A DNA stretch of 64,000 bases from an uncultured Candidatus Saccharibacteria bacterium (GTDB lineage Bacteria > Patescibacteriota > Minisyncoccia > Phycocordibacterales > UBA12088), in the NCBI GenBank assembly GCA_964567265.1, contig CAZMLK010000002.1, positions 66,996 to 130,995 on the forward strand, read 5' to 3'. Below the pieces are notes generated by a model that saw only the letters and a program-made list of their open reading frames with translations, had not been told where the DNA came from and did not search any database. Position 1 is the stretch's first letter, and each line of letters starts with the position of its first letter. Of the stretch, positions 3,793-25,617 are shown piece after piece. A program made the translations under genes and the position numbers.

Positions 3793-3865
3793 GTGCGCGG
3801 TGGAGGGCTCGAACCCCCGACCTTCTCAGTGTAAATGAGTTGCTCTACCAACTGAGCTAACCGCG
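3793..3865 (-). tRNA. tRNA-Val (anticodon TAC), no encoded CCA
   Basis: cloverleaf read from minus strand: GCGCGGT-TA-GCTC-AGTTGGTA-GAGC-A-ACTCA-TTTACAC-TGAGA-AGGTC-GGGGG-TTCGAGC-CCTCC-ACCGCGC-A. Confidence 0.85.
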
Positions 3866-3906
3866 CATATCCTCCTTCTCAAATTTTCGCGGTCATTGGG
3901 TAATGG

Positions 3907-4811: not shown

Positions 4812-4883
4812 TGCCCCTGCGAGGAGTCGAACCTCGATCAACGCCTTAGAAGAGCGCTGCTCTATCCATTGAGCTACGGGGGC
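4812..4883 (-). tRNA. tRNA-Arg (anticodon TCT), no encoded CCA
   Basis: GCCCCCG-TA-GCTC-AATGGATA-GAGC-A-GCGCT-CTTCTAA-GGCGT-TGATC-CGAGG-TTCGACT-CCTCG-CAGGGGC-A; one C:A mismatch in acceptor stem. Confidence 0.8.
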
Positions 4884-9205: not shown

Positions 9206-9841
9206 CTACCGTGTAAGGAGTTTGTAATACTTCTGTGCTGAGTCTATGAATTCTCTCTCCGCGCTTTCATCGTTGGTGTATTTCTCTTCACCCCAGTATG
9301 TGTGGGATACGAGCTTGCCCTTTTGAAACGTGAAGGCGCCAGAGTAAACGGGTTTAGTCTGGGTGTAATCGGGAGAACCGTCATTCGAAGTGAAATAGTT
9401 CTCGACACCTGCATGAACAAAAATAATTTCTGATTTATTAAAATAATAAACTTCTGTAATGATCTCATATGACAGACCTACCTTAACTACAATCCTTCTA
9501 AGCTCATTGTCAACAAAATATCCTGTTAGATCCCCTCCACCATCGGTGGGGTATCCCAAAAATTCGTCCTGCGATAATGTTTTGGAAGTGTAGTTTTTTC
9601 TCGAATCTATTTCCCAATCAATCTGACGAACGTCGTTCGCAACCTCCTGATCAACGATGGGGTTCGGCGACTGGTATGTAGACACCTCAACAACTTTCGA
9701 ATAGTCGGAAAAAAACGCAACGTAAATACCGAGAGCGGCCACGAGGGCAAAAATCACTGCCAATCCTTTGTTGGGCATTAACGCCCAAAAATGGTTCCGA
9801 CGAGTGGTATCACCCCAAACTTTTTTAGAATTTCTAAACAT
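9206..9841 (-). CDS. hypothetical membrane-anchored protein
   Basis: 211 aa, N-terminal hydrophobic segment GLAVIFALVAALGIYVAFF; region visibly lower GC than surroundings. Confidence 0.5.
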   Translation of the reverse strand: MFRNSKKVWGDTTRRNHFWALMPNKGLAVIFALVAALGIYVAFFSDYSKVVEVSTYQSPNPIVDQEVANDVRQIDWEIDSRKNYTSKTLSQDEFLGYPTDGGGDLTGYFVDNELRRIVVKVGLSYEIITEVYYFNKSEIIFVHAGVENYFTSNDGSPDYTQTKPVYSGAFTFQKGKLVSHTYWGEEKYTNDESAEREFIDSAQKYYKLLTR

Positions 9842-10126: not shown

Positions 10127-10211
10127 CGGAGGGGGAGGGATTCGAACCCTCGGAACCTTGCGGCTCTCCTGTTTTCAAGACAGGTGCACTCGACCACTAT
10201 GCGACCCCTCC
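10127..10211 (-). tRNA. tRNA-Ser (anticodon TGA), type II long variable arm, G73 discriminator, no CCA
   Basis: GGAGGGG-TC-GCA..TGC-ACCTGT-CTTGAAA-ACAGG-long variable arm-GAGGG-TTCGAAT-CCCTC-CCCCTCC-G. Confidence 0.8.
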
Positions 10212-11483: not shown

Positions 11484-11555
11484 GCTCTCGTAGTTCAATG
11501 GATAGAACGCGAGCTTGCGGAGCTCGTAATGTAGGTTCGATTCCTACCGGGAGCA
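11484..11555 (+). tRNA. tRNA-Arg (anticodon GCG as read), no CCA
   Basis: GCTCTCG-TA-GTTC-AATGGATA-GAAC-G-CGAGC-TTGCGGA-GCTCG-TAAT-GTAGG-TTCGATT-CCTAC-CGGGAGC-A. Confidence 0.75.
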
Positions 11556-13003: not shown

Positions 13004-13570
13004 ATGATTGCAGAACTCAGGGGCACGGTCTCATCCATCCAGAAAGGCTCCCTCATCCTCGATGTGGCCGGTGTGGGCTACAAAGTGTACATGACGGAAG
13101 GGTCGCTCCTCACGCTCGCCGAGGGCGCGCCCGCAAAACTCGCCATCTATACGGTTGTGCGCGAGACCGCACTCGAACTCTTCGGCTTCGAGTCGCGTGC
13201 GGCGCAAAATCTCTTCGAGCTCCTGCTCGAAGTCCCCGGCATCGGACCGCGCTCTGCGCTCGGCATTCTCTCCTTGGCCGATGTACGCACCCTCGAAGGT
13301 GCGATTGCATCCGGCAACGCCGCCTACCTCACCCGCGTCTCAGGAATCGGCAAGAAGAGTGCCGAGAAGATCGTGATCACACTCCAGGACAAAATCCAGA
13401 AGCAGGACGGCATGGACGGCGCGTCCGAAGAGGGTGATGCGCTCGAAGCCCTTCATGCGCTCGGATACTCTCCGAAGGAGGCGCGCGAGGCCCTCCAGAA
13501 TGTGCCCCGCGATGTCACCGACGCGGGCGCGCGCATCCGCGAAGCGCTCAAGATACTCGGCCGTACCTAA
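13004..13570 (+). CDS. ruvA: Holliday junction DNA helicase subunit RuvA
   Basis: 188 aa; MIAELRGTV...LDVAGVGYKV... and helix-hairpin-helix region LLEVPGIGPRSALGIL. Confidence 0.85.
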   Translation: MIAELRGTVSSIQKGSLILDVAGVGYKVYMTEGSLLTLAEGAPAKLAIYTVVRETALELFGFESRAAQNLFELLLEVPGIGPRSALGILSLADVRTLEGAIASGNAAYLTRVSGIGKKSAEKIVITLQDKIQKQDGMDGASEEGDALEALHALGYSPKEAREALQNVPRDVTDAGARIREALKILGRT

Positions 13571-15931: not shown

Positions 15932-16004
15932 CCGCCCATAGCTCAGTCGGTAGAGCGGCTCCCTTTTAAGGAGATGGTCGCAGGTTCGAGTCCTGCTGGG
16001 CGGA
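15932..16004 (+). tRNA. tRNA-Lys (anticodon TTT), C1-G72 first pair, no CCA
   Basis: CCGCCCA-TA-GCTC-AGTCGGTA-GAGC-G-GCTCC-CTTTTAA-GGAGA-TGGTC-GCAGG-TTCGAGT-CCTGC-TGGGCGG-A. Confidence 0.8.
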
Positions 16005-21485: not shown

Positions 21486-23153
21486 ATGTCAGGCATCCAG
21501 GAAGATAAGCAGAGTGCTCGCCTCGATGAGATCCGCGCTCGCGAAGAGGAGGAGCTCGCGAAAATCCTCGCTGTCAAATACGGCCTTGAGTATGCCGATC
21601 TCTCCCAGCAGGTCATTGAAACTGATGCCCTCCGCCTCCTCCCAGAGGACGAGGCCCGCAAGGCAGAGCTCGCGACCTTCTTCCGCGCAGGCAAGAAGGT
21701 CTCGGTTGCGCTCAGGAGTCCCAACAACCCAGCCGTCACCGAGATCCTCAACAAGCTCAAGGATCTCGACTACAAGCTTACACTCTACATGACCTCGCGC
21801 GCGGGCCTCGAGCGCGCCTGGATCCGCTACAAGGACCTTTCATTCGCAATGGAGACCAAGGCTGGCATGCTCGACATCTCGGCCGACGAGATCCGTGACC
21901 TCATCAAGAACATCAGCACATTCGAGAGCGCGCAGAAGAAGATCAGCGAGGTACTGACCCTGAAGAAATCCCATCGCCTCTCGCGCATCCTCGAGACCTT
22001 GCTGGGCACCTCGCTCGCACTCGATGCATCCGATATCCACATCGAGCCCGAGGAGACCTATGTGCGCATCCGCGTACGCCTCGATGGCGTTCTCACCGAT
22101 CTCATCCAGTTCGACCGGGAGACCTTCGCGCTCCTCGACTCCCGCATCAAGCTCCTCTCAGGCCTCAAGCTGAACGTGAAGGATGAAGGTCAGGACGGAC
22201 GCTTCAGCGTGCGCATCGACAACACCGACATCGAAATCCGAACATCGGTCATCCCGGGCGCGTATGGCGAAGCACTCGTCATGCGTATCTTGAACCCAAC
22301 GACGATCGCCGTCCCGATGGAGGAACTCGGCATGGAGAAGAACCTGCTCACGCTCCTCGAGCATGAGATCTCGAAGCCGAACGGCATGATCCTCAATACC
22401 GGCCCAACGGGTTCCGGAAAGACGACCACCCTCTACGCCTTCCTCCGCAAGATCCACAAGCCGGACATCAAGATCATCACGATCGAGGACCCGATCGAAT
22501 ACCACATGCAGGGTGTCGTGCAGACGCAGACTGAGGAAGGATACACATTCGACTCCGGACTTCGCTCCGCGCTCCGCCAGGACCCGGACGTGATCATGAT
22601 CGGTGAGATCCGCGACAAGGAGGTGGCGCAGACCGCGCTTCATGCCGCGCTGACCGGCCACCTAGTGTTCTCGACGCTCCACACCAACACGGCAGCCGGC
22701 GCATTCCCCCGCTTGATCGACCTCGGGATTAATCCGAAGGTCATTAGCTCAGGTGTCAATATTGTGATGGCACAGCGTCTCGTGCGAAAATTGACTCTTG
22801 AGACGGCCCGCAAGGTGCCGATTCAGGGGGAAGACAAAGTGTTCATCGACAAAGTGCTCGCGACCATCGAGAACAAAGCCCTGATTCCTGCGAATACGAC
22901 TGAGATGTGGGAGCCGGACACCTCAAAGCCGGAGAATGGCTCCGGATTCCATGGCCGCATCGGCATCTTCGAGGCCATCAAGGTAGATGACGAGGTTGAT
23001 GCGCTCGTCAAAGTCGACTCGAGCGAGCAAGAGATCGCTGCGAAGGTCCGCTCCCAAGGCCTCATGACCATGGTGCAGGACGGCGTGGTGAAGGTGCTCC
23101 AAGGAGTGACGACGATCTCGGAGCTCGGTCGCGTGATCGACCTCTCGAAATAG
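21486..23153 (+). CDS. pilB: type IV pilus / type II secretion assembly ATPase (PilB/GspE family)
   Basis: Walker A GPTGSGKTTTLYAFL, Asp box IITIEDPIEY, His box MIGEIRD, TLHTN; N-terminal GSPII-type domain. Confidence 0.85.
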   Translation: MSGIQEDKQSARLDEIRAREEEELAKILAVKYGLEYADLSQQVIETDALRLLPEDEARKAELATFFRAGKKVSVALRSPNNPAVTEILNKLKDLDYKLTLYMTSRAGLERAWIRYKDLSFAMETKAGMLDISADEIRDLIKNISTFESAQKKISEVLTLKKSHRLSRILETLLGTSLALDASDIHIEPEETYVRIRVRLDGVLTDLIQFDRETFALLDSRIKLLSGLKLNVKDEGQDGRFSVRIDNTDIEIRTSVIPGAYGEALVMRILNPTTIAVPMEELGMEKNLLTLLEHEISKPNGMILNTGPTGSGKTTTLYAFLRKIHKPDIKIITIEDPIEYHMQGVVQTQTEEGYTFDSGLRSALRQDPDVIMIGEIRDKEVAQTALHAALTGHLVFSTLHTNTAAGAFPRLIDLGINPKVISSGVNIVMAQRLVRKLTLETARKVPIQGEDKVFIDKVLATIENKALIPANTTEMWEPDTSKPENGSGFHGRIGIFEAIKVDDEVDALVKVDSSEQEIAAKVRSQGLMTMVQDGVVKVLQGVTTISELGRVIDLSK

Positions 23154-23175
23154 AGTTTCTGTTCTTCGTAATATA

Positions 23176-23345
23176 GAAAAATCCGGCAGATAACCCTCTA
23201 AGCAACACTTTCAATACGTTGGTATTCAAAGCCGGAAGGTCATTCTGAGGAGATCCCCAGCGGTGCTTCTGTGAGGAAGGGACCAGGGAATCCTCGAAAG
23301 ACCCCCGCAGCCTGTTAAAGGGCCTCGTTGCTTAGAGGGTTATAC
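23176..23345 (+). ncRNA. candidate structured noncoding element closed by a perfect 22-24-bp terminal inverted repeat
   Basis: CCGGCAGATAACCCTCTAAGCAAC ... GTTGCTTAGAGGGTTATACGCCGG enclosing ~121 nt containing GGAA/GAAA hairpins; in a 320-nt noncoding gap between pilB and ruvB; strand and identity uncertain. Confidence 0.35.
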
Positions 23346-23481
23346 GCCGGATTGAGGCGCCACATTGGGACGGACAGAGAGAAGCGACGACGTTTCGTCG
23401 CTGAGAGATGTGTGGGCAATAAAAAATGCCCCGAGGAGAGGTCCATGTGGGCTAGGAGAAATCTAGCATACAAACAAAATC

Positions 23482-24513
23482 ATGTCAATACCTACGCCCC
23501 CGCTCCATGCACTCGAAGAACAGTCACTCGACCGGACTCTCCGGCCGTCGAGCTGGGAGGAATACATCGGCCAGAGCGCGGTGAAGGAGAATCTGCGCAT
23601 CCTTCTTCGTGCCGCGAAAGAGCGCGGGCACGCGCCTGAGCACCTTTTGTTCTATGGCCCGCCCGGACTCGGGAAGACCACGCTCGCGCACTTGATCGCG
23701 CGGGAGCTGGGCGCCCAAATGAAGATCACCTCCGGCCCTGCGATCGAGCGCGTCGGCGATTTGGCCGCTCTTCTCACCAATCTTTCCTCCGGCGACATCC
23801 TGTTTGTCGACGAGATCCACCGCCTCAACAAATCGATTGAGGAAATCCTCTACCCCGCCCTCGAGAGCGGTGTCCTCGACATCATCATCGGCAAAGGGCC
23901 CTCCGCACGCACCATCCAGCTCGAGCTTCCGCCGTTCACACTCGTCGCAGCGACGACGAAGATCGCGCAGCTCTCCGCCCCGCTCCGCTCCCGCTTCTCG
24001 GGCGGCGTCTTCCGCCTTGATTTCTATACTGACGATGAGCTCACGAGCATCCTCCGCCGCTCTGCCGGAGTCTTGCAGACCGACGCGAGCGAGACCGCGC
24101 TTCGCGCCATCGCGGCCAGGAGCCGCTATACGCCACGCACTGCTAACTATTTATTGAAGCGCTGCCGCGACTACGCGCAAGTAATGAAGACACCATTCTC
24201 GGAAGAGGCAGTTGGGAACGCACTCACCCTGCTTGCGATCGATGATCTCGGCCTCACCGCCGCAGACCGCGCCGTCCTCGACATTCTTATCCAGAAATTC
24301 AACGGCGGGCCAGTGGGCTTGGGGACCCTCGCGGCCGCGACCTCGGAAGAAGACGAGACCATCGAGGATGTGTACGAGCCCTACCTCATCCGCTCAGGAC
24401 TCCTCGAGCGCACGCCCAGGGGGCGCATCGCCACCCGTCGCGCCTATGAACATCTCAATCTCATGAACCGCTACCGCGGCGAGCAGGATTCATTCCCGCT
24501 CGGGGACGCATAA
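23482..24513 (+). CDS. ruvB: Holliday junction DNA helicase RuvB
   Basis: LFYGPPGLGKTTLAHLIA Walker A; AAA+ and winged-helix C-terminus. Confidence 0.9.
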   Translation: MSIPTPPLHALEEQSLDRTLRPSSWEEYIGQSAVKENLRILLRAAKERGHAPEHLLFYGPPGLGKTTLAHLIARELGAQMKITSGPAIERVGDLAALLTNLSSGDILFVDEIHRLNKSIEEILYPALESGVLDIIIGKGPSARTIQLELPPFTLVAATTKIAQLSAPLRSRFSGGVFRLDFYTDDELTSILRRSAGVLQTDASETALRAIAARSRYTPRTANYLLKRCRDYAQVMKTPFSEEAVGNALTLLAIDDLGLTAADRAVLDILIQKFNGGPVGLGTLAAATSEEDETIEDVYEPYLIRSGLLERTPRGRIATRRAYEHLNLMNRYRGEQDSFPLGDA

Positions 24514-24535
24514 TTTATCCGTTTCAGTTTCTCCC

Positions 24536-25066
24536 ATGTCTGGACATAACAAGTGGAGCAAGATCAAGCACAAGAAGGCGGCGTCGGATGCGAAGAAGAG
24601 CAAGGAGTTCTCGAAAACTGCGAGCCTCATCGCGGCTGAGTCGAAGCGGGTGAAGGGCGATGCAACAGCGCCCACCCTCCGCGTACTCATCGAGAAGGCG
24701 CGCGGCCTCAACATGCCAAAGGAGAACATCGATCGCGCGATCGAGAAAGGAAAGAGCGACCCGAATGCAATCTACGATCATGTCCTCTACGAGGCCTATG
24801 GCCCGGGCGGCGTCGCGCTTCTGATCGAAGGCTTCACCGACAAGAAGAATCACGTCGCGGCAGAGATCAAGCGCGTGTTCTCGAAGCACAACGTCGCACT
24901 CGCGGCTCCGGGGAGCGCAGCGTGGGCGTTCACCAAGACCGAGGATGAGTGGGTCGCGAATGTCACCGTACCACTCGAAGATATGGATCTCGATCAACTG
25001 GAAAAGATCGTGGATGAGCTTGAGGAAATCCCGGACATCAACGACATCTATACGAACGCGGAGTAG
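24536..25066 (+). CDS. YebC/PmpR-family protein (short, 176 aa)
   Basis: MSGHNKWSKIKHKKAASDAKKSKEFSK N-terminus is the YebC signature; located between ruvB and ruvC as in many bacteria. Confidence 0.7.
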   Translation: MSGHNKWSKIKHKKAASDAKKSKEFSKTASLIAAESKRVKGDATAPTLRVLIEKARGLNMPKENIDRAIEKGKSDPNAIYDHVLYEAYGPGGVALLIEGFTDKKNHVAAEIKRVFSKHNVALAAPGSAAWAFTKTEDEWVANVTVPLEDMDLDQLEKIVDELEEIPDINDIYTNAE

Positions 25067-25095
25067 CGGCTTCCCTTTCTTGATATACTGCCCCC

Positions 25096-25617
25096 ATGAA
25101 AATCCTTGCGCTCGACCCAGGATACGGACGCTTAGGAATCGCCGTCGTTGAGAAATCGGCCGGAAAGGAAATCGTTCTGTATTCAGATTGCATCGAGACG
25201 ACAGCTGCAACCCCCTTTCCGGAGCGACTTCGTGCACTTGGGGCTGCGATTGAAGCTGCAATCAGTGCATATGCGCCCGATGCGTGCGCACTTGAGCATC
25301 TCTTCTTCACGAACAATCAGAAAACGGCGATGCACGTCGCCGAGGCGCGCGGCATGATTCTATACATCGCGAGCACGCACGAACTTCCCGTCTTTGAATA
25401 CACGCCAAACCAGGTGAAGGTTGCGGTCGCCGGCGACGGCCGCGCCGACAAAGGGCGGCTGATGGCGATGGTAACGCGATTGGTGGCAACACGAGCCGAT
25501 ATCAAGCATGATGACGAATACGATGCGATCGCAGTCGGCCTCACCTGCCTCGCGATCGAACGGCCGCTCAAAATTTCACAACAGACTTTATCCACACGGA
25601 AGGGTCTAGGGGCTTGA
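25096..25617 (+). CDS. ruvC: crossover junction endodeoxyribonuclease RuvC
   Basis: MKILALDPGYGRLGIAVVE N-terminus with catalytic Asp; RNase H-like fold motifs. Confidence 0.85.
   Translation: MKILALDPGYGRLGIAVVEKSAGKEIVLYSDCIETTAATPFPERLRALGAAIEAAISAYAPDACALEHLFFTNNQKTAMHVAEARGMILYIASTHELPVFEYTPNQVKVAVAGDGRADKGRLMAMVTRLVATRADIKHDDEYDAIAVGLTCLAIERPLKISQQTLSTRKGLGA

Follow-up and report, generated by a model that had tools for sequence, protein, structure and literature searches.

Several described systems resemble, in one respect or another, the element that lies between pilB and ruvB in the 64 kb stretch of DNA analysed here (the window). The 6S RNA (ssrS, RF00013) is alike in its length, in its long closing helix opposite a long apical arm, and in its strong housekeeping-type promoter. 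The raiA, ROOL, OLE and HEARO motifs, which are Rfam orphans, are also covarying multi-helix folds, each confined to one bacterial lineage and found by comparative analysis. The four-way-junction K-turn riboswitches such as SAM-I have four helices, and a K-turn-like loop in the present element (C-GA-GGA / UCC-UUA-GA-G) could fold one arm back. At the DNA level, the Correia MITEs of Neisseria are ~150–170 bp long and bounded by ~26-bp inverted repeats, and in cis-antisense or 'excludon'-like layouts two genes stand back to back, with a promoter overlapping the start region of the neighbour. The helix 8 of SRP RNA has as its hallmark a GNRA-capped helix with AGCA/GGA-type loops.

This study describes a structured RNA that was previously uncatalogued, being absent from Rfam 15 and from the literature searched. 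Comparison of both strands and both of its subtypes with the 4227 families of Rfam 15, at gathering thresholds and at E ≤ 10, returned only tRNAs elsewhere and noise, and no known riboswitch or leader family matched on either strand. The Rfam 6S models gave no match at E ≤ 10 on either strand of the window interval 23100–23520 or of positions 9450–9850 of the homologous locus L072, and a search of the window and of seven homologous loci, all small parts of their genomes, detected no canonical 6S RNA. ARAGORN found nothing over the gap. An SRP RNA, which the earlier note had discounted by eye, was also without an Rfam match, and the helix-8 hallmark was not seen on either strand. The same note had set aside 6S RNA, and the lack of an Rfam match agrees with this, but a 6S-like role is still carried as a rival explanation below. 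Resemblances to RNase P, tmRNA, a retron msr-msd and the hairpin ribozyme were considered and rejected, since the locus lacks their conserved motifs or the neighbour genes that they require, and Rfam gave no match. Full-text literature on ruvB-linked or CPR structured RNAs, with subscription journals mostly outside its scope, yielded no description of the element.

Inverted Repeat and Noncoding Interval

The interval from the pilB stop (23153) to the ruvB ATG (23482) measures 328 nt and has no ORF of note, which agrees with the unusually long noncoding gap of ~320 nt recognized previously. Within it, a repeat finder placed the arms of an inverted repeat at 23180–23206 and 23327–23353, each of 27 nt, 120 nt apart and complementary at 25 of 27 positions (93%). 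The repeat claimed in the earlier note is therefore present, and the 121-nt interior given for it was correct, but its coordinates were about 7 nt too low: CCGGCAGATAACCCTCTAAGCAAC was found at 23183–23206 rather than 23176–23199, and GTTGCTTAGAGGGTTATACGCCGG at 23328–23351 rather than 23322–23345. Its description as a perfect repeat of 22–24 bp was also overstated, since two adjacent mismatches, 23188/23345 (A.C) and 23189/23344 (G.A), split the repeat into a 17-bp perfect core (23190–23206 with 23327–23343) and an 8-bp outer part. Read on the minus strand, the first of these mismatches (23188/23345) is a G.U wobble. The GCAGCC motif mentioned previously was located at 23308–23313. When an 18-mer core was searched with up to three mismatches, the two arms were its sole occurrences in 64 kb (0.01 expected); the inverted repeat is far beyond chance. 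Against shuffled controls, the MFE of the 170-nt segment had z-scores of −6.6 (plus strand) and −9.4 (minus strand).

Distribution and Copy Number

Homologues came from two retrievals, one of 80 species-level loci via RuvB (L005–L084), and one of metagenome contigs via the RNA pattern alone. Its RuvB relatives assign the window to the Patescibacteria: the best match was 73% identical, and the nearest records bear the labels Paceibacteria, Parcubacteria, Kaiserbacteria or Nomurabacteria. Four Logan contigs represent the identical strain, without variation. A search by nhmmer with a 185-mer placed the element directly upstream of ruvB in about 25 of the 80 loci, while nhmmer and a covariance model (R1) found one copy just upstream of ruvB in 45/45 RuvB-fetched loci L005–L049 other than L047 (RuvB 61–73% identical), the R1 matches of L039 and L044 having low scores. 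No further significant copies were detected by R1 in the ~1.37 Mb covered by the RuvB-fetched loci. More distant loci (Moranbacteria-labelled and similar) gave weak matches to a minus-strand model (15–28 bits), all of them in the equivalent position and orientation. A model made from 17 distant-subtype sequences (R3) scored 150–197 bits in 30 of the 35 loci L050–L084, 57–66 bits in L057, where the copy is split in two, and only 23–31 bits in L071 and L084. Since R3 also detects members of the close subtype (24–38 bits), and since both subtypes share a UGGU/GCUG wobble helix and the GCAA/UUGC end of the closing helix P1, the two subtypes make up one family. Altogether, 78 of the 80 RuvB-fetched loci have a match upstream of ruvB, in four cases of low score only (L039, L044, L071 and L084). 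No match was found in L047, where the gap between pilB and ruvB is only ~80 nt, or in L083; L081 had a match in the R1 search only.

The second retrieval searched a metagenome collection with the pattern ATCTCTARRCRA-N{100,125}-TYGYYTRGAGAT, taken from P1 and making no use of ruvB. It returned at least 120 metagenome stretches, and all 80 of those listed were matches to model R2 at 78–139 bits, one per contig (0.58 Mb in total). A viral or mobile origin was considered on account of two pattern matches in IMG/VR, but both fall within ORFs, away from any ruvB, and the model gives them no score; they are chance matches and act as a negative control. The earlier note had proposed a search for extra copies and an examination of relatives. 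The first gave a single copy in the 64 kb of the window and one per locus in both the 1.37 Mb and the 0.58 Mb sets, and the second showed conservation both in the RuvB-fetched loci (78/80) and in the listed pattern-fetched contigs (80/80).

Covariation and Coding Strand

The secondary structure is maintained by compensatory changes. In the final alignment of 43 distinct homologues, which was fitted to the model and hence leans toward the structure, 93.6% of cells were paired and 33 of 41 pairs had compensatory changes; MAFFT alignments made earlier agree for helices P1 and P3. None of 500 shuffles matched the alignment in any of five measures, and when pairing partners were slid by 1–3 columns as a control, pairing fell to 36–52%. 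Helix 1 (P1) was 95.9% paired across the 43 homologues, with compensatory changes in 21 of its 24 pairs, and the first alignment had given similar values (96.8% paired, both-side changes in 17 of 23 pairs). Helix 4 (P4) showed such changes in four of five pairs in the close subtype and in six of eight in the distant one. Independently of the close subtype, the 17 distant-subtype sequences give a clean four-way junction in which each of the four arms covaries.

The RNA is encoded on the minus strand, opposite ruvB, as shown by an excess of G.U pairs, by fold energies, by UNCG loops and by a near-consensus promoter. Over 35 consensus pairs in 43 sequences, the minus strand has 178 GU and UG combinations versus 28 AC and CA, and the plus strand has the reverse. 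Folding energies favoured the minus strand in 40 of 45 homologues, by a mean of 10.4 kcal/mol (p = 5e-8), and an enlarged set gave 114 of 121 (mean 12 kcal/mol). This argument is weak on its own because the strands differ in composition; the wobble counts at covarying positions are immune to this weakness. Loops of the form C(UNCG)G numbered 35 on the minus strand versus four on the plus strand, and in minimal forms of the RNA the upper part of P3 pairs on the minus strand only. The GGAA and GAAA loops reported in the earlier note were a wrong-strand reading, as on the functional strand the relatives have loops of UNCG or GNRA type. A plus-strand model (alignment A2, model R1), in which P1 was supported and upper P3 fitted poorly, chiefly in minimal forms, was dropped after these strand tests.

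Architecture of the RNA

The core of the RNA is ~175 nt long and forms a four-way junction, the closing helix of which, P1, is the inverted repeat. The features of the locus, from ruvB leftwards and thus 5' to 3' along the RNA, are as follows.

23482–24513, plus strand: ruvB, the divergent adjacent neighbour
23483–23488, minus strand: −35 hexamer TTGACA, overlapping the ruvB start (ATGTCAA on the plus strand; ATG at 23482–23484)
23460–23468, minus strand: extended −10 element TGC-TAGATT (TGCTAGATT); with the −35 hexamer a 10/12 match to sigma70, 17-nt spacer
23354–23453, minus strand: P0, predicted 5' domain, the 5' end of which, GCCCACAUGGAC, pairs with GUCC..CAAUGUGGCGC just ahead of P1
23327–23353, minus strand: 5' strand of the closing helix P1, AAUCCGGCGUAUAACCCUCUAAGCAAC (repeat arm and covariation)
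23308–23326, minus strand: P2, small 5' hairpin GAGGCCCUUUAACAGGCUG (fold and subtype comparison)
23233–23307, minus strand: P3, long conserved arm (covariation in both subtypes)
23208–23231, minus strand: P4, 3' hairpin CUUUGAAUAC-CAAC-GUAUUGAAAG (fold and covariation)
23180–23206, minus strand: 3' strand of the closing helix P1, GUUGCUUAGAGGGUUAUCUGCCGGAUU (repeat arm and covariation)
23170–23179, minus strand: U-rich tail UUUCUAUAUU (sequence and T content)

In the predicted fold, P0 encloses two hairpins, GGGCA/UGCCC and GCGACGA-aacg-UCGUCGC, the latter followed by UUCUCUCU, and the interval from 23454 to 23168 has an MFE of −127.4 kcal/mol (z = −9.2). In the distant subtype, a comparable 5' helix with covariation could be recognized by eye (GUCAUCU/AGAUGAU vs GUCAUAU/AUAUGGC). 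The closing helix P1, of 24–27 bp, is interrupted by a small internal loop. The inner half of P1, AUCUCUAAGCAA/UUGCUUAGAGAU, is near-invariant, the pairs C-G, U-A, C-G, U-A and A-U occurring in 37–43 of the 43 homologues, and its outer half covaries freely. The sequence of P1 is conserved beyond the pairing needs of a plain structural stem. P2 is variable or absent in the close subtype, and forms without it have a partly single-stranded 5' strand linking P1 to P3; the distant subtype has here a conserved, covarying hairpin of 9 bp with a conserved loop, CUUCUAUCUUUUG, and the junction is almost fully paired, with linkers of 0–4 nt. P4 is a CUUU...AAAG hairpin that abuts P1, and the U-rich tail, together with the last two U residues of P1, reads AUUUUUCUAUAUU.

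The P3 arm begins with a basal helix that differs among subgroups, followed by a K-turn-like internal loop formed by UUUCGAGGA (5' side) and UCCUCAGAA (3' side), and then by a helix of 4–5 bp with strong covariation. It also carries a near-invariant UGGU/GCUG helix with tandem wobbles (plus-strand ACCAG at 23282–23286 and CCAGC at 23257–23261). In the close subtype this helix has U.G in 37/43, G.U in 38/43 and G-C in 43/43 sequences, then U-G or U-A, and the neighbouring pairs covary; among 17 distant homologues, the G.U and G-C pairs are present in all 17 and the flanking U.G pairs in 14–15. The tip of P3 is a variable apical hairpin, which in the shortest family members is capped with UUCG or UCCG. 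The K-turn-like loop is a lead only. Judged by eye against the K-turn consensus (a bulge of three nucleotides, then tandem sheared G.A/A.G pairs, beside a Watson-Crick stem), the form 5' UUUC-GA-GGA / 3' UCC-UUA-GA-G fits in the window and in an L028-like group, and roughly half of all sequences conform. In another group the second A.G pair is replaced by C-G, and ~12 of the 43 sequences do not fit (AUAGGA...UCCUAUAA).

Promoter and End Signals

The RNA strand appears to carry its own promoter and end signal, both recognized as sequence signals. The promoter is the only sigma70-like site within 22900–23700, and from the usual distance of 6–8 nt transcription is predicted to start near 23453. 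Of 117 homologous loci, 114 have an exact TTGACA-N16/17-TAnnnT ahead of the RNA and on its own strand, and in 113 of these 114 a TG stands two bases before the −10 hexamer (spacer ending NTGN). In 91 of the 114 loci the −35 element is extended to TTGACAT, corresponding to ATGTCAA on the strand of ruvB. In the window, ATGTCAA comprises the ruvB start codon and a TCA serine codon, and the fixation of TCA among six serine codons suggests a constraint at the DNA level. The distance from promoter to P1 ranges from 8 to 217 nt (median ~60; 114 loci), and in the distant subtype the promoter lies 20–200 nt from the ruvB start, with no overlap. Of 43 loci, 34 reached a promoter score of at least 10 on the minus strand, and 3 did so on the plus strand.

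Downstream, the 8 nt past P1 contain on average 3.2 T residues on the minus strand versus 1.7 on the plus strand (43 loci, p = 4e-4), and many relatives have a bidirectional terminator soon after P1, between the upstream gene and the RNA. A simple terminator scan of the window called none after P1, since here the 'loop' is a whole domain. The U-rich tail is the probable 3' end and termination point, giving for the window a predicted primary transcript from ~23453 to ~23172. The stable small RNA suggested in the earlier note was of the right kind, but it is on the opposite strand and is probably ~100 nt longer, reaching up to the promoter at the ruvB start. In many loci the promoter and P1 are separated by a small hairpin and a U-run, which could stop transcription before the junction.

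Linkage with ruvB

The position of the RNA relative to ruvB is nearly constant. The two are head-to-head in all but two of the ~150 Patescibacteria (CPR) genomes and metagenome contigs that could be checked, and ruvB was adjacent and divergent in 74 of 74 pattern-fetched contigs long enough to judge (tblastn, of 80 listed). The pilB gene is near in most loci, at varying distance and orientation. As gene order in the lineage is generally conserved, with pilB nearby, linkage alone is no proof of a functional tie; and because linkage persists in the distant subtype, where promoter and ruvB start do not overlap, the overlap of signals cannot be its sole reason. The absolute linkage could instead reflect a cis or antisense role.

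Transcription signals on the ruvB strand were less regular. A general scan for ruvB-strand promoters gave weak, inconsistently placed candidates, and no plus-strand promoter or terminator was found in the pilB–ruvB interval of the window. A plus-strand −10 element, TAGCAT, sharing bases with the extended −10 element of the RNA, occurs in just 65 of 114 loci and was rejected as a firm ruvB promoter. One subgroup has a plus-strand TGCTATAAT ~69 nt upstream of the ruvB ATG, which would give a 5' UTR overlapping the 5' end of the RNA. A further idea, that an RNA junction had replaced RuvA in this organism, was ruled out by a RuvA homologue encoded at 13004–13552, 10 kb away (E = 1.6e-23 with E. 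coli RuvA as the query).

Interpretation

The element very probably represents an independent, structured noncoding RNA gene, which is read from the minus strand in the direction away from ruvB. Transcription would begin near 23453 at the extended −10 sigma70 promoter. The transcript may first fold its ~100-nt 5' domain (P0) and next the compact four-way junction, closed by P1 and carrying P2, P3 and P4, and it would end in the U-rich tract near 23172. The consensus promoter, the long closing stem and the UNCG caps suggest that the RNA is abundant and stable. Its conservation is concentrated in helices and internal loops, namely the invariant stretch of P1, the wobble helix of P3 and the K-turn-like loop, and the best guess is that it acts as a folded scaffold or decoy for protein binding and not by base-pairing. 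Given a minus-strand RNA gene, a protein-binding role in trans has about an even chance of being correct. As the promoter occupies the start region of ruvB, transcription of the RNA and of ruvB is probably mutually exclusive or coupled.

In an explanation that is compatible with an RNA gene, but that we regard as unlikely, the locus would serve mainly to control ruvB by cis-antisense pairing or transcription interference. Any ruvB mRNA that starts upstream, or arises by read-through from pilB, would contain the complement of the RNA, and polymerase occupancy, collision, or cleavage of the duplex by RNase III could then set ruvB expression. The overlap of the −35 element with the ruvB ATG (91/114 loci) and the unbroken divergent linkage (74/74 contigs) favour such a role, as do the gap in the window, where the lack of a plus-strand promoter or terminator would allow read-through across the antisense RNA, and the subgroup with TGCTATAAT, whose ruvB 5' UTR would overlap the 5' end of the RNA. 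However, an antisense element needs no four-way junction, covariation, UNCG caps or invariant wobble motif, the linkage is kept in the distant subtype with the promoter 20–200 nt from the ruvB start, bidirectional terminators separate the upstream gene from the RNA in many loci, and the ruvB-strand promoters are weak and inconsistently placed. It is doubtful that the RNA is instead the 6S equivalent of this lineage, a ~180 nt mimic of an open promoter that sequesters the sigma70 holoenzyme, with P1 as the closing stem, P3 as the apical stem, and P2 and P4 as hairpins inside the 'central bubble'. The size (150–190 nt), the very long closing stem with a long opposing arm, the strong sigma70 promoter with a leader needing processing, the partly single-stranded 5' strand between P1 and P3 in forms without P2, and the absence of a canonical 6S RNA from the window and seven homologous loci (small genome parts) would all fit. 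Yet the Rfam models find nothing at E ≤ 10 on either strand of either subtype, the distant-subtype junction is nearly all paired (0–4 nt linkers) and its P2 is a covarying 9-bp hairpin, leaving no open bubble, and sequence-invariant helices are foreign to 6S RNA. We know of no 6S gene tied to ruvB. A long shot is that the four-way junction RNA, which would be produced in large amounts next to ruvB, is bound by RuvA, RuvB or RuvC as a mimic of the DNA recombination intermediate. Such a Holliday-junction mimic might titrate, load or regulate Ruv proteins as a Patescibacteria-specific recombination partner, by a logic comparable to that of 6S RNA imitating an open promoter.

The two remaining readings place the element on the plus strand or in the DNA itself, and the earlier note had raised a ruvB leader and a MITE-like insertion. 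That it is a 5' leader of ruvB, riboswitch or protein-binding, might be suggested by its constant position upstream of ruvB, at times just 24–45 nt from the start, and by the good fold of the plus strand, most pairs being Watson-Crick. It is nevertheless very improbable, because four lines of evidence (G.U pairs, fold energies, UNCG loops and the promoter) assign the RNA to the minus strand: read as a leader, 178 conserved pairings would turn into A-C mismatches, the fold would be weaker by a mean of 10–12 kcal/mol, and upper P3 could not form in minimal versions, and there is no consistent plus-strand promoter upstream where the minus strand has a consensus one. A DNA-level element, whether a MITE bounded by 27-bp terminal repeats or a site that forms a cruciform or a single-stranded-DNA hairpin, would account for the long inverted repeat and the conserved sequence of its arms, but is extremely improbable. 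The MITE-like insertion in particular is refuted by copy number and synteny, there being one copy in 64 kb and in every 10–20 kb locus, at an orthologous position in ~150 loci across deep divergence. There is also no target-site duplication (the flanks, GAAA|AAUCCGG...CCGGAUU|GAGG, contain no direct repeat), the terminal repeats covary as an RNA helix, and the interior has compensatory changes, RNA-specific tetraloops and an inward-pointing promoter.

A large part of bacterial diversity belongs to the Patescibacteria (CPR), whose noncoding RNAs are almost uncharted. The RNA gene favoured here looks widely conserved, has an elaborate fold and is predicted to be highly expressed, which makes it a clear candidate for structural work and for the search for partners. 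Its covariance model can annotate a blank gap of ~300 nt in hundreds of genomes, and corrects a likely mis-annotation, as the element is easily mistaken for a ruvB leader, a riboswitch or a MITE. It also raises the puzzle of why an RNA gene should stay locked head-to-head with ruvB.

Comparison with Known RNAs and Elements

Set against the systems introduced at the outset, the RNA differs from each in definable ways. The Correia MITEs share its size and its terminal repeats, but the present element is single-copy, lies at an orthologous position without a target duplication, and covaries in both arms and interior. In cis-antisense and 'excludon'-like layouts the arrangement of promoter and neighbour is comparable, whereas here the transcript has an elaborate conserved fold, beyond a mere complement of the messenger. 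Unlike SAM-I, it is not upstream of a gene on the same strand, has no expression platform and no Rfam match, and its P1 of 24–27 bp is far too stable for switching. It does not match raiA, ROOL, OLE or HEARO in sequence or structure, and is a Patescibacteria RNA of ~175–280 nt tied to one neighbour gene. From 6S RNA it differs in having no covariance match, in the paired four-way junction that replaces the open central bubble, in its sequence-invariant helices, and in its fixed head-to-head position with ruvB. P1 and P3 could be stacked into a rod, but both strands of the 'bubble' form covarying hairpins in the distant subtype; in forms without P2 the junction is partly open. With no evident open central bubble and no match to the covariance models, the RNA is not filed as 6S. 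It is, like 6S RNA, probably trimmed from a longer precursor, and by size, promoter type and overall shape 6S RNA appears to be its nearest functional analogue.

Features flanking the RNA gene

Between the consensus promoter and the closing helix P1, the RNA strand carries a small hairpin with a U-run after it, at a position within the predicted 5' helix P0 (window 23354-23453, minus strand). The same arrangement is present in other loci fetched through RuvB (L023, L024, L036, L016, L026, L034, L027 and L028), and in Moran-type loci, which carry a diverged form of the RNA (e.g., L072 and L067). The element resembles an intrinsic terminator placed in front of the RNA body, and could for this reason serve as an attenuator or belong to a leader that is processed. 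In Moran-type loci, the gap from the RNA promoter to the start of ruvB is occupied by AT-rich stretches of 100-200 nt, built of short, imperfectly repeated units such as AATTTTCAATTTACAATTTTCAATCAATTTTCAATGA. In many relatives, the upstream gene is separated from the RNA gene by bidirectional terminators, GC-rich hairpins that have an A-run on one side and a T-run on the other. The window has none.

Features of the RuvB-fetched loci (coordinates are those of each locus)
AT-rich repeat stretches, RNA promoter to ruvB: L067, L053, L073, L050, L055
Bidirectional terminators just past the RNA 3' end: L036, L023, L024, L025, L041, L042, L048, L014, L035, L021
Long or split distant-subtype RNAs: L057 6485-6793; L062 9485-9793; L051 715-1011; L076 9541-9838
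MAG records with apparently unreliable titles: L009, L012, L013, L018, L051, L060, L081-L083

Variation and distribution of the RNA

In the distant subtype, certain RNAs measure ~300 nt or give a match broken into two parts, which implies insertions of at least 100 nt within them. One of the two RuvB-fetched loci in which none of the three covariance models found a copy is L047 (9876-9959), and since its pilB and ruvB are only ~80 nt apart, loss or relocation of the RNA is suggested. The RNA is present in most of the MAG records that have a Paceibacteria-like RuvB under the titles 'uncultured Candidatus Saccharibacteria', 'Bdellovibrionales' or 'Gammaproteobacteria'; such titles are common, and the taxonomic labels of these records look unreliable.

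The four contigs of the identical strain differ solely in a run of five versus six C at the base of the long arm P3 (L002 ~728-733, window 23302-23306). The ruvC ORF in L002, the same contig as the C-run difference, is 242 aa rather than 173 aa. Three independent Logan assemblies of this strain (L002-L004) all begin at window ~22574, a contig end inside pilB that lies ~908 nt ahead of ruvB and leaves pilB represented by its final 192 codons alone. The shared end is suggestive of heterogeneity within the strain, or of a repeat somewhere in the N-terminal two thirds of the gene.

Genomic context

Rfam matches in the 64-kb window were limited to five tRNA genes, with no gene for rRNA, SRP, 6S, RNase P or tmRNA.

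tRNA genes in the window (Rfam)
3794-3866
4812-4883
10127-10211
11484-11555
15932-16004

A RuvA homologue is encoded at 13004-13552 (plus strand), ~10 kb from ruvB (tblastn with E. coli RuvA, E = 1.6e-23), and ruvB is followed by yebC and then ruvC (23482-25617). The usual pairing of ruvA with ruvB is therefore broken in the lineage of the window.
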